Assembly (NCBI RefSeq): GCF_003334385.1
Contig: NZ_QOWN01000080.1
Direction: 5' to 3' (one strand)
Length of the DNA: 5,623 bases
Source: Escherichia coli
Lineage (GTDB): Bacteria > Pseudomonadota > Gammaproteobacteria > Enterobacterales > Enterobacteriaceae
This document shows, piece after piece, positions 2,453 through 5,623 of this stretch. The position numbers were made by a program, and so were the translations under genes. Below the pieces are notes generated by a model. It was not told the origin of the DNA, did not search any database, and worked only from the letters and a program-made list of their open reading frames with translations. Numbering within the stretch: the stretch's first letter is position 1; every line of letters starts with the position of its first letter.

Positions 2453-2471
2453 TGATTACTGGTAAATAAAT

Positions 2472-2526
2472 ACAGGCCATCTGCCCTCACAGATGGCCTG
2501 TATCAGTGGAAGTTATATTTCCACTG
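2472..2526 (+). repeat. Two adjacent perfect hairpins in the porin 3' UTR
   Basis: Hairpin 1: ACAGGCCATCTG (2472-2483) pairs with CAGATGGCCTGT (2490-2501), 12-bp stem and 6-nt loop. Hairpin 2: CAGTGGAA (2504-2511) pairs with TTCCACTG (2519-2526). Neither is followed by a T-run on the + strand, so they look like stabilising or processing stem-loops rather than canonical terminators. Confidence 0.5.
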
Positions 2527-2610
2527 GTCACTGCGATCAGCTATTAGCTGATTTAATTTTCATTTTATTACCTTCATCGTTTTTGATTTTTTAATTGAAC
2601 TATTTTATCA

Positions 2611-2634
2611 GGGGCGCATTGCGCCCCTTTTTTT
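2611..2634 (+). terminator. Rho-independent terminator closing the porin cassette
   Basis: GGGGCGC-ATT-GCGCCCC stem-loop (2611-2627) followed by TTTTTTT (2628-2634). Lies 15 nt upstream of the L start codon. Confidence 0.75.
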
Positions 2635-2648
2635 ATGGGTGGATGTTT

Positions 2649-3347
2649 ATGCAGGAGATCAACGAAGAAAGCCTGAATGAGTCGGTTAAATCAGAGCAGT
2701 CACCGCGGGTGGTACTCTGGGAAATTGACCTGACGGTGCAGGGTGGTGAGCGGTATTTTTTCTGTAATGAGCTGAATGAAAAAGGGGAGCCGGTCACCTA
2801 GCAGGGGCGGAAGTACCAGGCATACCCGATTGACGGCAGCGGCTTTGAGATGAACGGGAAAGGGAGCAGTGCCCGCCCGTCACTGACGGTGTCGAATCTG
2901 TTCGGGCTGGTTACCGGGATGGCGGAGGATTTGCAGAGCCTGGTGGGGGCCACGGTGGTTCGTCGCCGGGTGTATGCGCGTTTTCTGGATGCGGTGAATT
3001 TTGTGGCAGGCAATCCGGAGGCTGACCCGGAGCAGGAGCTGACGGACCGCTGGGTGGTGGAGCAGATGTCGCAGCTCACAGCCATGACGGCCTCGTTTGT
3101 GCTGGCGACACCGACGGAGACGGACGGTGCGTTGTTTCCCGGCCGCATCATGCTGGCGAACACCTGTATGTGGACCTACCGCTCTGATGAGTGTGGTTAC
3201 ACGGGCGGGGCGGTGGCGGATGAGTTCGATAAACCCACCACCGATATCCGTAAGGACAGATGCAGCAAGTGCATGCGCGGGTGTGAACTGCGCAGGAATG
3301 TCGGCAATTTTGGCGGTTTCCTTTCCATTAATAAACTTTCGCAGTAA
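2649..3347 (+). pseudogene. L: Minor tail protein L (lambda gpL-like) interrupted by an in-frame amber codon at 2799-2801
   Basis: ATG at 2649 (MQEINEESLNE...) to TAA at 3345-3347 is 699 nt, matching the lambda L length as I recall it. One TAG at 2799-2801 splits it into 2649..2801 and the track ORF 2850..3347, but the 16 codons between the stop and the next ATG (QGRKYQAYPIDGSGFE) continue in frame and read as tail-protein sequence. The track ORF start at 2595 would span the terminator hairpin and is rejected. Confidence 0.7.
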
Positions 3348-3357
3348 ATCCCGGTTT

Positions 3358-4101
3358 ATGACACAGACTGAATCAGCGATTCTGGCGCATACCCGGCGGT
3401 GTGCGCCTGCGGAGTCGTGCGGCTTCGTGATAACCACGACGGAGGGCGAGCGGTACCTGCCCTGTGTGAATATCTCCGCAGCGCCGGAGGCGTATTTTCG
3501 TATTGCCCCGGAAGACTGGCTGCGGGCGGAGATGCAGGGTGAGATTGTGGCGCTGGTTCACAGTCATCCCGGTGGTCTGCCCTGGCTGAGTGAGGCAGAC
3601 CGGCGACTGCAGATAAAAAGTGCCCTGCCCTGGTGGCTGGTCTGCCGGGGTGACATTCACAAATTCCGCTGCGTTCCGCACCTGACCGAACGGCGCTTTG
3701 CGCACGGGGTGACGGACTGTTACACGCTGTTCCGGGATGCATACCATCTGGCAGGCATTGATATGCCGGATTTTCACCGTGAGGATGACTGGTGGTGCAA
3801 CGGTCAGAACCTTTACCTGGACAATATGGAGGCAACGGGCTTTTACCGGGTGCCCCTGTCCTCTGCACTGCCGGGCGATATCCTGCTGTGCTGCTTCGGC
3901 GCATCGGTGGCTAATCATGCCGCCATTTACTGCGGCAACGGTGAACTGCTTCACCATCTGCCTGAACAACTGAGTAAACGGGAGAGGTATTCCGAAAAAT
4001 GGCAACGACGAACGCATTCTGTCTGGCGTCACCGCCACTGGCACGCATCTGCCTTCACGGGGATTTACAACGATTTGGCCGCCGCTTCAGCCTGTATGTG
4101 A
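3358..4101 (+). CDS. K: Tail tip assembly protein K (lambda gpK-like) with JAB/MPN (JAMM) and NlpC/P60 domains
   Basis: ATG at 3358 (MTQTESAILAH...). JAMM motif HSHPGGLPWLSEAD (H-x-H-x7-S-x2-D). NlpC/P60-like Cys (GVTDCYTLF) with downstream His residues (NHAAIYCG, LLHH). The track ORF start at 3097 is an out-of-frame read-in over the L 3' end and is rejected. No obvious Shine-Dalgarno; start is 10 nt after the L stop. Confidence 0.8.
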   Translation: MTQTESAILAHTRRCAPAESCGFVITTTEGERYLPCVNISAAPEAYFRIAPEDWLRAEMQGEIVALVHSHPGGLPWLSEADRRLQIKSALPWWLVCRGDIHKFRCVPHLTERRFAHGVTDCYTLFRDAYHLAGIDMPDFHREDDWWCNGQNLYLDNMEATGFYRVPLSSALPGDILLCCFGASVANHAAIYCGNGELLHHLPEQLSKRERYSEKWQRRTHSVWRHRHWHASAFTGIYNDLAAASACM

Positions 4102-4679
4102 ACACGGCGGCGGAAGCCATCCGCGCCCTGTCGCTGCAGGTGCCGGGATTCCGCCGTCAGATGAACGAAGGCTGGTACCAGATACGCATTGCCGGTGAGG
4201 ATACGGCACCGGAGGCGGTGTATGCCCGCCTTCACGAACCACTGGGTGAGGGAACGGTTATCCATATTGTGCCGCGACTGGCCGGAGCCGGAAAGGGCGG
4301 ACTACAGATTGTGCTGGGGGCAGCTGCCATTGTGGGGTCTTTCTTCACGGCCGGAGCATCAATGGCGTTATGGGGTTCAGCCCTGGCAGCCGGTGGTTTT
4401 TCTGCCACCACGATGCTGTTTTCACTGGGTGCCAGCATGATACTGGGCGGTGTGGCCCAGATGCTGGCCCCGAAGGCAAAAACACCGGATTACCGCGCAA
4501 CGGATAACGGCAGACAGAACACGTATTTTTCCTCACTGGACAACATGATTGCCCAGGGCAACCCGATGCCGGTGCCCTACGGTGAAATGCTGGTTGGTTC
4601 ACGACGTATCTCTCAGGACATCAGCACCCGTGATGAAGGCGGAGACGGAAAGGTGGTGGTTATTGGTCGACAGGGATAA
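3999..4679 (+). CDS. I: Tail assembly protein I (lambda gpI-like)
   Basis: 226-aa ORF with RICL-GDLQRFGRR near the N-terminus and a Gly/Ala-rich hydrophobic segment followed by QNTYFSSLDNM, as I recall for lambda I. Overlaps the K 3' end by 103 nt in another frame. Confidence 0.8.
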   Translation: MATTNAFCLASPPLARICLHGDLQRFGRRFSLYVNTAAEAIRALSLQVPGFRRQMNEGWYQIRIAGEDTAPEAVYARLHEPLGEGTVIHIVPRLAGAGKGGLQIVLGAAAIVGSFFTAGASMALWGSALAAGGFSATTMLFSLGASMILGGVAQMLAPKAKTPDYRATDNGRQNTYFSSLDNMIAQGNPMPVPYGEMLVGSRRISQDISTRDEGGDGKVVVIGRQG

Positions 4680-4692
4680 AACATAAAAAAAT

Positions 4693-4717
4693 CCCGCAGT
4701 GATCGCGGAGCTGCGGG
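4693..4717 (-). terminator. Probable intrinsic terminator oriented for minus-strand transcription
   Basis: Inverted repeat CCCGCAG (4693-4699) and CTGCGGG (4711-4717). On the minus strand the stem is followed by T7 (plus-strand A-run 4685-4691). No T-run follows it on the + strand. Confidence 0.45.
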
Positions 4718-4788
4718 GACAGACAAATGAAGATTAATGTTAAGGAGTTGTTTTTGTTACTCGGGCAAAAAAACACTAACGCAGCGAA

Positions 4789-4816
4789 ATTATAAGCGCC
4801 ACAGTCAGTGTGTGAA
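4789..4816 (-). promoter_or_regulatory. Candidate sigma70 promoter on the minus strand (TTCACA-N16-TATAAT)
   Basis: Read on the minus strand: TTCACA (complement of 4811-4816), 16-nt spacer, TATAAT (complement of 4789-4794). Fires toward the minus-strand terminator at 4693-4717. Confidence 0.35.
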
Positions 4817-4890
4817 AATGTGAAGATATTCAGAATTTTTATGCCATTACCGGTTTTAACCAACAGGATTATCGGTGGGCATGAAAGAAA

Positions 4891-4918
4891 ACCCCGGTAT
4901 CTGCTGATACCGGGGTTT
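4891..4918. terminator. GC-rich hairpin with T-rich flanks on both strands; possible bidirectional terminator
   Basis: ACCCCGGTATC (4891-4901) pairs with GATACCGGGGT (4906-4916), 4-nt loop. Followed by TTCTGTTT on the + strand and by TTTCTTTCAT on the minus strand. Confidence 0.4.
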
Positions 4919-5021
4919 CTGTTTAGCATGGCAGAAATGTGTTTCATGCTTTTCGGGCGAAGGATATCCGACTTCTGTACGGAATGGCAAGTGGCGGTTA
5001 ATTTATTCAGGGGAAGGCTGT

Positions 5022-5623
5022 ATGGGAAAAGGTGGCGGTAAGGCACACACGCCTCGTGAGGCGAAGGATAATCTCAAATCCACGCAGATGATGAGTGTGA
5101 TTGATGCGATTGGTGAGGGACCGATAGAAGGTCCGGTGAAGGGACTGCAGAGTATTCTGGTGAACAAAACCCCGCTGACGGACACGGACGGTAATCCCGT
5201 GATACACGGTGTGACTGCGGTCTGGCGTGCCGGGGAGCAGGAGCAGACACCGCCGGAAGGCTTTGAGTCCTCCGGGGCGGAAACCGGACCAGGCGTGGAG
5301 GTGACGAAGGCAAAGCCGGTGACGCGCACCATTACGTCCGCGAACATTGACCGCCTGCGGGTGACCTTCGGGGTGCAGTCACTGGTGGAGACCACCTCAA
5401 AGGGTGACCGTAACCCGACGTCTGTCCGCCTGCTGATTCAGCTTGAGCGTGGTGGTAAATGGATGACGGAAAAGGATGTCACCATTAACGGCAAGACCAC
5501 CTCGCAGTTCCTGGCGTCGGTGATTCTGGATAATCTGCCGCCCCGGCCCTTTAACATCCGGATGGTCAGGGAGACGGCGGACAGCACCACGGACCAACTG
5601 CAGAACAGAACGCTGTGGTCGTC
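5022..5623 (+). CDS. J: Tail tip / host-specificity protein J (lambda gpJ-like), N-terminal part; continues beyond the window
   Basis: ATG at 5022 preceded by GGGGAAGG (5010-5017). N-terminus MGKGGGKAHTPREAKDNLKSTQ... and later GEQEQTPPEGFESSG, PPRPFNIRM, STTDQLQN match what I recall of the lambda J N-terminus. Frame is open to the window end. Absent from the ORF track because no stop codon falls in the window. Confidence 0.85.
   Translation, partial: MGKGGGKAHTPREAKDNLKSTQMMSVIDAIGEGPIEGPVKGLQSILVNKTPLTDTDGNPVIHGVTAVWRAGEQEQTPPEGFESSGAETGPGVEVTKAKPVTRTITSANIDRLRVTFGVQSLVETTSKGDRNPTSVRLLIQLERGGKWMTEKDVTINGKTTSQFLASVILDNLPPRPFNIRMVRETADSTTDQLQNRTLWS

Follow-up and report, generated by a model that had tools for sequence, protein, structure and literature searches.

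The I-J spacer of an Escherichia coli lambdoid prophage very probably encodes an allele of the Hfq-dependent small RNA PasB

RESULTS

Organization of the tail-gene block and the I-J spacer

The window analyzed here, a 5,623-nucleotide stretch of an Escherichia coli contig (NZ_QOWN01000080.1), is a lambdoid prophage tail-gene block that runs from the end of H through M, a porin moron, L, K, and I into a spacer and the first part of J. Gene I (3999..4679, plus strand) was placed from the list of open reading frames, and every homologous locus annotates it as a "tail assembly protein." The 5′ part of the tail tip/host specificity gene J (5022..5623, plus strand) was recognized by its sequence and by the gpJ annotation of homologous loci. 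In phage lambda the gap between I and J is short, at about 60 bp. The two genes are separated in the window by 342 bp (I stop, 4679; J start, 5022), and the AT-rich character previously ascribed to a spacer of this length was confirmed, with a G+C content of 43% compared with 52% for the window. Elsewhere in the block, the minor tail gene L was found to be split by an in-frame TAG (2799-2801): the open reading frame 2595-2801 stops at this codon, L-like sequence continues in the same frame, and the next listed open reading frame is 2850-3347, an arrangement that may reflect either a defective prophage or an amber or sequencing variant.

On the minus strand of the spacer, a predicted sigma-70 promoter was found at 4789..4816 (−35 TTCACA, 4816..4811; N16; −10 TATAAT, 4794..4789), exactly where a TTCACA-N16-TATAAT promoter had been proposed. 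It matches the consensus at 11 of 12 positions and was the top site of the window in the promoter scan. Dinucleotide shuffling of the window produced an 11/12 promoter in 26 of 500 sequences (5%), and shuffling of the spacer did so in 11 of 2000 (0.55%); because it recurs in shuffles, the promoter by itself is only moderately unusual and is suggestive, not decisive. A Rho-independent terminator is located on the same strand at 4685..4717, with a 7-bp stem (CCCGCAG/CUGCGGG, 4717..4693), an 11-nt loop, and a U7 tract (4691..4685), and the terminator scan placed a minus-strand call at 4709..4693 followed by ATTTTTTT; the intrinsic terminator that had been described at 4693-4717 plus T7 is therefore present, with a 7-bp GC stem. 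[quoted passage not shown] Transcription from a predicted start at ~4782, ~7 nt past the −10 hexamer, would generate a 98-nt RNA with no ATG, one GTG, and two TTG codons, in agreement with the ATG-free transcript of roughly 95-100 nt anticipated in the original prediction.

Identity of the spacer unit with PasB

The predicted RNA was found to correspond to PasB (pathogenicity-associated sRNA B), which was discovered in the EPEC strain E2348/69 by Hfq RIL-seq (Pearl Mizrahi 2021, PMC8550237). PasB is recorded in Table S6 of that study as an 83-nt RNA of prophage PP6 on the minus strand of NC_011601.1 (1466343..1466261; E2348C_1436/E2348C_1437), and its size was confirmed by Northern blot (PMC8550237). 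The published RNA aligned to 4685..4767 of the window (minus strand) with 81 of 83 positions identical, the two substitutions being C27A and G33A. The published PasB Northern probe, AATCCCGCAGTGATCGCGGAGCT, matched 4690-4712 exactly and did so in none of 200 shuffles; since the match is to the plus strand, the RNA is on the minus strand. In the type locus of E2348/69 PP6, PasB is positioned between E2348C_RS07635 (tail assembly) and gpJ, i.e., in the same I-J spacer position and in the same orientation with respect to I and J as in the window. The two loci are near-identical from the I stop codon to ~4845 before diverging, and the 190 nt that could be aligned, promoter and terminator regions included, are the same save for the two substitutions and two differences in the flanks. 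The window copy differs from that of PP6 in that (i) C27A and G33A are located where the RNA pairs with napF, fabR, and caiF; (ii) its spacer has an extra 176-bp segment (4846-5021); and (iii) its prophage carries a porin moron, which PP6 lacks.

Published data for the E2348/69 allele are those of an Hfq-dependent RNA. The Northern blot signal of PasB disappeared in the hfq deletion strain, its log2 fold change in the absence of hfq was −6.8 and −2.4 in two growth conditions (Table S2), and the RNA was more common in the "non-activating" condition (overnight static LB, 37°C); 37 interactions were recorded, and the RIL-seq partners number ~35 (PMC8550237). A preprint has since described PasB as embedded in a phage structural operon and proposed a seed just 5′ of the terminator (10.64898/2026.05.13.724894). 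Overall, the unit in the I-J spacer is very probably an allele of this known prophage sRNA, that is, an independent pasB gene of lambdoid I-J spacers with an Hfq-dependent, trans-acting product; an independent minus-strand sRNA gene had been correctly predicted for the spacer, and it is the published PasB.

The published expression also bears on whether the signals in the spacer are fortuitous, with a promoter-like match that happens to lie beside a hairpin ending or insulating I and that has no dedicated product. The number of promoter-like sites in the window (six, compared with 5.2 expected from shuffles) is what such a reading would anticipate. However, the T-run of the hairpin is on the minus strand only, so the hairpin cannot terminate I; the promoter is conserved in relatives; and both Northern blot and Hfq RIL-seq revealed the transcript in E2348/69, with homologues detected in Sakai. 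A fortuitous promoter is thus refuted by the published expression of the near-identical E2348/69 allele and is hardly conceivable as an account of the locus.

The 176-bp second half of the spacer (4846-5021), missing in E2348/69 PP6, is itself a structured and well-conserved segment. In 1,446 E. coli genomes, CFT073 and O157:H7 among them, its identity is 95% or higher, and it keeps 99% identity even where the neighboring PasB part is down to 91%. Its predicted folding was much stronger than that of shuffles on both strands, with z = −4.6 on the plus strand and z = −6.1 on the minus strand. The segment includes an 11-bp GC hairpin (4888-4916) with U-rich runs flanking it on both strands and a weak promoter-like site on the minus strand (4990..4961); no Rfam match and no annotation were found for 4846-5021. 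This segment could represent a second small transcription unit or a terminator/insulator.

Conservation and distribution of the PasB unit

The PasB unit was aligned with 17 relatives of down to ~72% identity, all from loci between I and J, and the position between I and J convergent with I was observed for the type locus, the window, and 15 further loci. Invariant or near-invariant across the 17 loci were the block 5′ of the −35, the −10 register, CTGCGTTA, the U-run, UUAAUC(UUC), and the terminator stem with its U-tract; the RNA body between these fixed signals and the terminator loop were found to vary. The −10 register reads TATAAT or AATAAT, the −35 hexamer is lost in the two most diverged of the 17 variants, and CTGCGTTA, which provides the first transcribed bases, is nearly invariant and accompanied by a T-run of 6-8. 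The terminator stem is unchanged apart from three single mismatches, with a loop that ranges from 4 to 16 nt. Both the promoter and the terminator, on the conservation of which the original prediction had been staked, are therefore kept in the I-J relatives. As judged from the alignment, conservation is a stronger argument than promoter score for a PasB unit.

Directly 5′ of the −35, the block AAAAATTCTGAATATCTTCACATTT (4817..4840, minus strand) is invariant even in the most diverged relative, with TTCTGAA..TCTTCACATTT the same in 17 of 17. Within this region, a 20-nt block, TTCTGAATATCTTCACATTT, is better conserved than the RNA proper and includes a direct repeat, TTCACA-N2-TTCACA, preceded by an A-tract. 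The 4817..4840 block is possibly an UP element or a regulator site of the PasB promoter.

The terminator hairpin was the sole conserved structure in the consensus fold of the relatives, with the rest of the RNA single-stranded. No covariation was detected in the consensus fold of the 17 relatives, and nothing was supported 5′ of the terminator; for the terminator stem, the lack of covariation is explained by the stem being invariant. In the fold of the 98-nt RNA, the U-run of the leader pairs with a downstream A-run, a hairpin that the consensus fold of the relatives did not support.

The alignment was also informative as to whether the spacer encodes a small protein, either from a 22-codon plus-strand open reading frame, MKINVKELFLLLGQKNTNAAKL (4726-4794), or from the minus-strand GTG frame. 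Both frames are open, and in one phage record a "hypothetical protein" is annotated on the plus strand of the spacer. However, the plus-strand ATG is missing in diverged relatives (TCTTCAT to TCTTCGT), homopolymer runs and 1- to 6-nt indels shift both frames, and the minus-strand GTG is without a Shine-Dalgarno sequence. Coding potential was rejected for both strands on the basis of the frame-breaking indels and the unconserved start, and a protein product appears scarcely credible.

The PasB spacer module was identified in 1,814 of 5,426 complete E. coli genomes, with as many as 11 matching places in a single genome. Only the half of the spacer nearer to I (to ~4845) is common to the diverged relatives, which include Stx1, Stx2, and Stx2c phages. 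A pattern scan with the promoter block, performed on one genome per species across 100,044 species, returned mostly chance matches, with true PasB loci only in E. albertii and on three stray contigs. The latter were from a Collinsella MAG, Parendozoicomonas haliclonae (460 nt), and Asaia platycodi (546 nt), and most likely reflect E. coli prophage DNA that contaminated or was misbinned into these assemblies. The alignment of the Asaia contig to PasB ends right after the −35 region, and the sequence past this break resembles the end of an IS3-family (IS629-like) element.

The 5′ end of PasB

The published 5′ end of PasB corresponds to 4767, which is 22 nt past the −10 hexamer, compared with the predicted start at ~4782. 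The interval between them, 4768..4782 on the minus strand, is a strongly conserved predicted 5′ leader composed of GCGUUAGUG and a U7 run. The published end was derived from coverage and Northern blot size, not from start-site mapping (PMC8550237). A 5′ end 22 nt past the −10 implies that the promoter assignment and/or the 5′ end need revision or that the RNA is processed; it is possible that the 83-nt form is a processed RNA or that the coverage-based end is imprecise. As the published 5′ end misfits the sole good and conserved promoter, the primary and mature forms of PasB need to be mapped.

Seed region and predicted pairing with RIL-seq partners

In the RIL-seq table for the non-activating condition, PasB was the second RNA in every chimera. 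The highest chimera counts were for E2348C_2648 (71), the napF 5′UTR (70), map (67), and yhhX (57), followed by an nlpD-region IGR (56), hflX (55), and fabR (50). The other partners were bfpB, caiF, cesD2, espC, ffh, ftsZ, glk, gshA, the raiA 5′UTR, rplX, the tolC 5′UTR, trmJ, the ydbJ 5′UTR, ydiY, yfcM, yfeA, ygeV, yhiD, yibT, yidF, and a few intergenic fragments. The unstructured part of PasB was compared with eight partner regions to find contiguous helices, and the longest helices for four of these regions (napF, fabR/yijD, tolC, and caiF) were all found to fall within nt 37-60 of the 98-nt RNA (4746..4723). This single-stranded seed (4723..4746, minus strand), which reads UCCUUAACAUUAAUCUUCAUUUGU in the window and UCCUUCACAUUGAUCUUCAUUUGU in E2348/69, is unpaired in both the single-sequence and the consensus folds.

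The napF helix of 16 bp with one G-U, formed by CUUCACAUUGAUCUUC with GAAGGUCAAUGUGAAG, spans the Shine-Dalgarno sequence and the GTG start; the fabR helix is a perfect 11 bp located 5-15 nt 5′ of the yijD start; and the tolC (11 bp, one G-U) and caiF (10 bp) helices are each positioned over the ATG. The napF helix was better than those of all 400 shuffled PasB sequences, and 1 of the 400 attained the summed helix score of the eight partners, an aggregate signal that is mostly due to napF. By this contiguous-helix measure, four of the eight partners (E2348C_2648, yhhX, map, and hflX) had no helix above shuffles. Both substitutions of the window allele, C27A and G33A, are inside the seed. This allele can no longer form the 16-bp napF helix or those with fabR and caiF; an alternative 13-bp napF helix is left, and the tolC helix is unaltered. 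When the plus strand is read across the same region (4726-4794), the DNA complementary to the seed has the appearance of a start region, GGGGACAGACAAATGAAGATT..., which probably reflects a seed built for "AUGAAGA"-type start regions such as that of tolC.

Relationship of PasB to the porin moron

The presence of a porin moron in the window had led to the suggestion that the sRNA is partnered with this gene and acts on OmpC/OmpF, a suggestion supported neither by linkage nor by the RIL-seq partners or pairing. As to linkage, PP6 has PasB, with M and L adjacent and no porin between them, and the moron (at least 80% coverage) was detected in 89 genomes, compared with 1,445-1,814 that have the PasB module. 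Among the RIL-seq partners, ompC, ompF, ompA, and other general porin mRNAs are absent from the list, and the sole outer-membrane partners are the tolC 5′UTR and ydiY. The target prediction that had been proposed against ompC, ompF, and phage mRNAs gave pairing that was not significant compared with shuffles: when full-length PasB was tested by RNAduplex with the start regions of ompC, ompF, the window porin, L, K, I, J, and M, none was significant after eight tests, and the best scores, for the J region (z = −2.0) and then ompC (z = −1.8), were for long, loopy duplexes. The proposed covariance-model search for known sRNA families likewise found that no Rfam family (DicF, MicF, or others) matches the spacer. 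With the whole window searched at E up to 10, nothing meaningful was returned in the spacer, where the sole match was to Hrs1, lay on the opposite strand, and scored 18.8 bits compared with a threshold of 56.4 (E = 4).

An IpeX/MicF-like RNA that is partnered with the porin moron and represses host OmpC/OmpF could still be argued from a 10-bp helix (two G-U) that manual inspection allows between AUUAAUCUUC and ompC GAGGGUUAAU, and from a PasB-ompC duplex energy that is marginally better than shuffles. A 10-bp helix with G-U pairs is nonetheless expected by chance in about one in six start regions (a rough estimate), and the ompF and window-porin start regions pair at chance level. When these considerations are added to the porin-free type locus, the disparity in genome counts, and the RIL-seq data, the porin-partner reading is already largely refuted, and we regard it as very unlikely. 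PasB resembles MicF, IpeX, and DicF in that these are trans-acting, terminator-ended enterobacterial sRNAs, of which IpeX and DicF are prophage-borne; it differs in that its spacer has no Rfam match to MicF or DicF and PasB has no porin partner in RIL-seq.

The MicF-like sequence of the window was found not in the I-J spacer but in the 3′UTR of the porin moron (2453-2636, plus strand), a structured region of 184 nt with a strong terminator at its end and a MicF-like core. The Rfam MicF model scored 28.3 bits at 2546-2636, below the threshold of 79 (E = 0.49). Two elements of this region may pair with porin mRNAs: (i) UUUAUUACCUUCAU (2564-2577), for which a 14-bp helix (one G-U) with the K-12 ompF ribosome-binding site AUGAGGGUAAUAAA is possible; and (ii) UUUAAUUUUCAU (2552-2563), for which a 12-bp helix with the ompC start region is possible. 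A 79%-identical moron has the same 3′UTR architecture and UUAUUACCUU core, with compensatory changes in two upstream hairpins. No clear similarity was found between the DLP12 nmpC 3′ region (IpeX) and the window porin 3′UTR. The predicted pairings and structure of the porin 3′UTR appear to fit the idea of an sRNA associated with the porin better than PasB does.

DISCUSSION

Our analysis points to the following mode of action for the pasB gene of the window. In the lysogen, pasB would be transcribed from its own sigma-70 promoter, opposing the late operon, and transcription would end at the Rho-independent terminator, 5 nt short of the I stop codon, giving an RNA of ~83-98 nt. This RNA would have an unstructured 5′ and central part followed by the terminator hairpin, with a U7 tail that is expected to bind Hfq, a layout that is typical of a trans-acting sRNA. 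Hfq-assisted pairing through the single-stranded stretch just 5′ of the terminator (4746..4723) would then engage mRNAs of the host and of horizontally acquired genes, chiefly at or near start codons and Shine-Dalgarno sequences (napF, tolC, caiF, and yijD downstream of fabR), and the outcome would most likely be translational repression. Hfq-assisted pairing of the seed with translation start regions is the best-supported mechanism. For the E2348/69 allele, others have demonstrated that the RNA is expressed, what size it has, that Hfq stabilizes it, and which RNAs it meets in vivo; the present analysis establishes which RNA the window copy corresponds to, that its gene signals are conserved, and that the seed is complementary to partners. 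That the predicted promoter is active, whether targets are repressed or activated, and how the window allele behaves are inferred.

An alternative is that the main action of PasB is in cis, with either the RNA serving as antisense or its convergent transcription as a roadblock against the late operon. As pasB lies inside the Q-antiterminated transcript that runs from I to J, PasB is fully complementary to that mRNA and could trigger its cleavage or dampen J, either of its own prophage or of a superinfecting relative. The gene is convergent and between I and J in every locus examined, this position is strictly kept while the RNA body diverges, and many genomes have several diverged copies, one per prophage, all of which suit a function in cis. 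Counter to this, the trans partners in RIL-seq are abundant, and none is an annotated I or J mRNA. The tail genes are silent in lysogens, from which all PasB data were derived, and the missing I and J partners are consequently weak evidence; in addition, the J start is at least 255 nt from the PasB gene, and no ribosome-binding site is covered. We consider a primarily cis-acting PasB to be unlikely and favor the trans-acting RNA described above.

Relatives of PasB may already have been detected in EHEC. EcOnc22, of the Stx1 phage Sp15, is an Hfq-bound RNA of ~85 nt on Northern blot that is destabilized without hfq, and its homologues in EHEC O157:H7 Sakai are EcOnc23 (Sp14) and EcOnc24 (Sp11) (Tree 2014, PMC4104026). 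The three Sakai loci are at 2,902,714-2,902,774, 2,676,643-2,676,704, and 2,166,694-2,166,753 of NC_002695. The reverse complement of the probe shared by EcOnc22-24 was found to align to the PasB-family body and has UUAAUCUUCAU and the start of the terminator in common with the PasB family, whereas the body and seed flanks are diverged from PasB. A 23-nt part of this probe is exact in one PasB-family member and matches at 21 of 23 positions in the annotated I-J spacer element of 04-00955. By its coordinates, EcOnc22 is ~22 kb from stx1 and on the strand opposing the late operon. From these coordinates and the match to 04-00955, we infer that EcOnc22-24 are in the I-J spacer, and by sequence they appear to be diverged PasB-family members. 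The ~85-nt Northern size of EcOnc22 does not discriminate between a processed 83-nt form of PasB and an imprecise coverage-based end. The name "EcOnc" has no occurrence in the 2026 Pas preprint (10.64898/2026.05.13.724894), and the PasB row of Table S6 (PMC8550237) holds no note of an EHEC homologue.

Other prophage sRNAs of EHEC are comparable to PasB in design. HnrS (EcOnc10/11/12), AgvB, and AsxR are moron-type sRNAs of lambdoid prophages that have their own promoter and intrinsic terminator, oppose the late operon, and target host mRNAs or sRNAs together with Hfq. They differ from PasB in location and sequence: HnrS is downstream of the Rz lysis gene and has no sequence similarity to PasB, and AgvB and AsxR are downstream of PR′, with no Rfam AgvB or AsxR match in the window. 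Three candidates were examined and set aside, namely (i) HnrS (EcOnc10-12, 66 nt), which had been suspected as a multicopy RNA and was found at the Sakai Sp9 locus after the endopeptidase gene with an unrelated sequence; (ii) svsR of prophage NC-SV, which is located at the cI 3′ end and hence unrelated; and (iii) Sakai Sp5 as a source of I-J spacers, this phage being short-tailed and lacking I and J.

The PasB RNA is already named, detected, and surveyed, and its recognition in the window adds little; what remains new is slight and concerns where the RNA starts (a length of 83 or ~98 nt), the seed variant of the window, and the connection to EcOnc22-24. We tentatively propose, at rather less than even confidence, that PasB is one allele of a larger and under-recognized family of I-J sRNAs, including those of Stx phages and EcOnc22/23/24, in which the promoter, first bases, and terminator are fixed and the seed diversifies; that the window allele drops fabR/yijD and caiF, weakens napF, and keeps tolC; and that the primary transcript is ~98 nt with a conserved 5′ end absent from annotation. 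The EcOnc22-24 link would join two literatures and extend the PasB family to Stx phages. The part of the RNA that base-pairs with its strongest partners in vivo differs between natural PasB alleles, and thus strains recorded as carrying "PasB" may not share a regulon. If this proposal is true, each prophage brings a differently targeted regulator through the diversified seed of its I-J sRNA.
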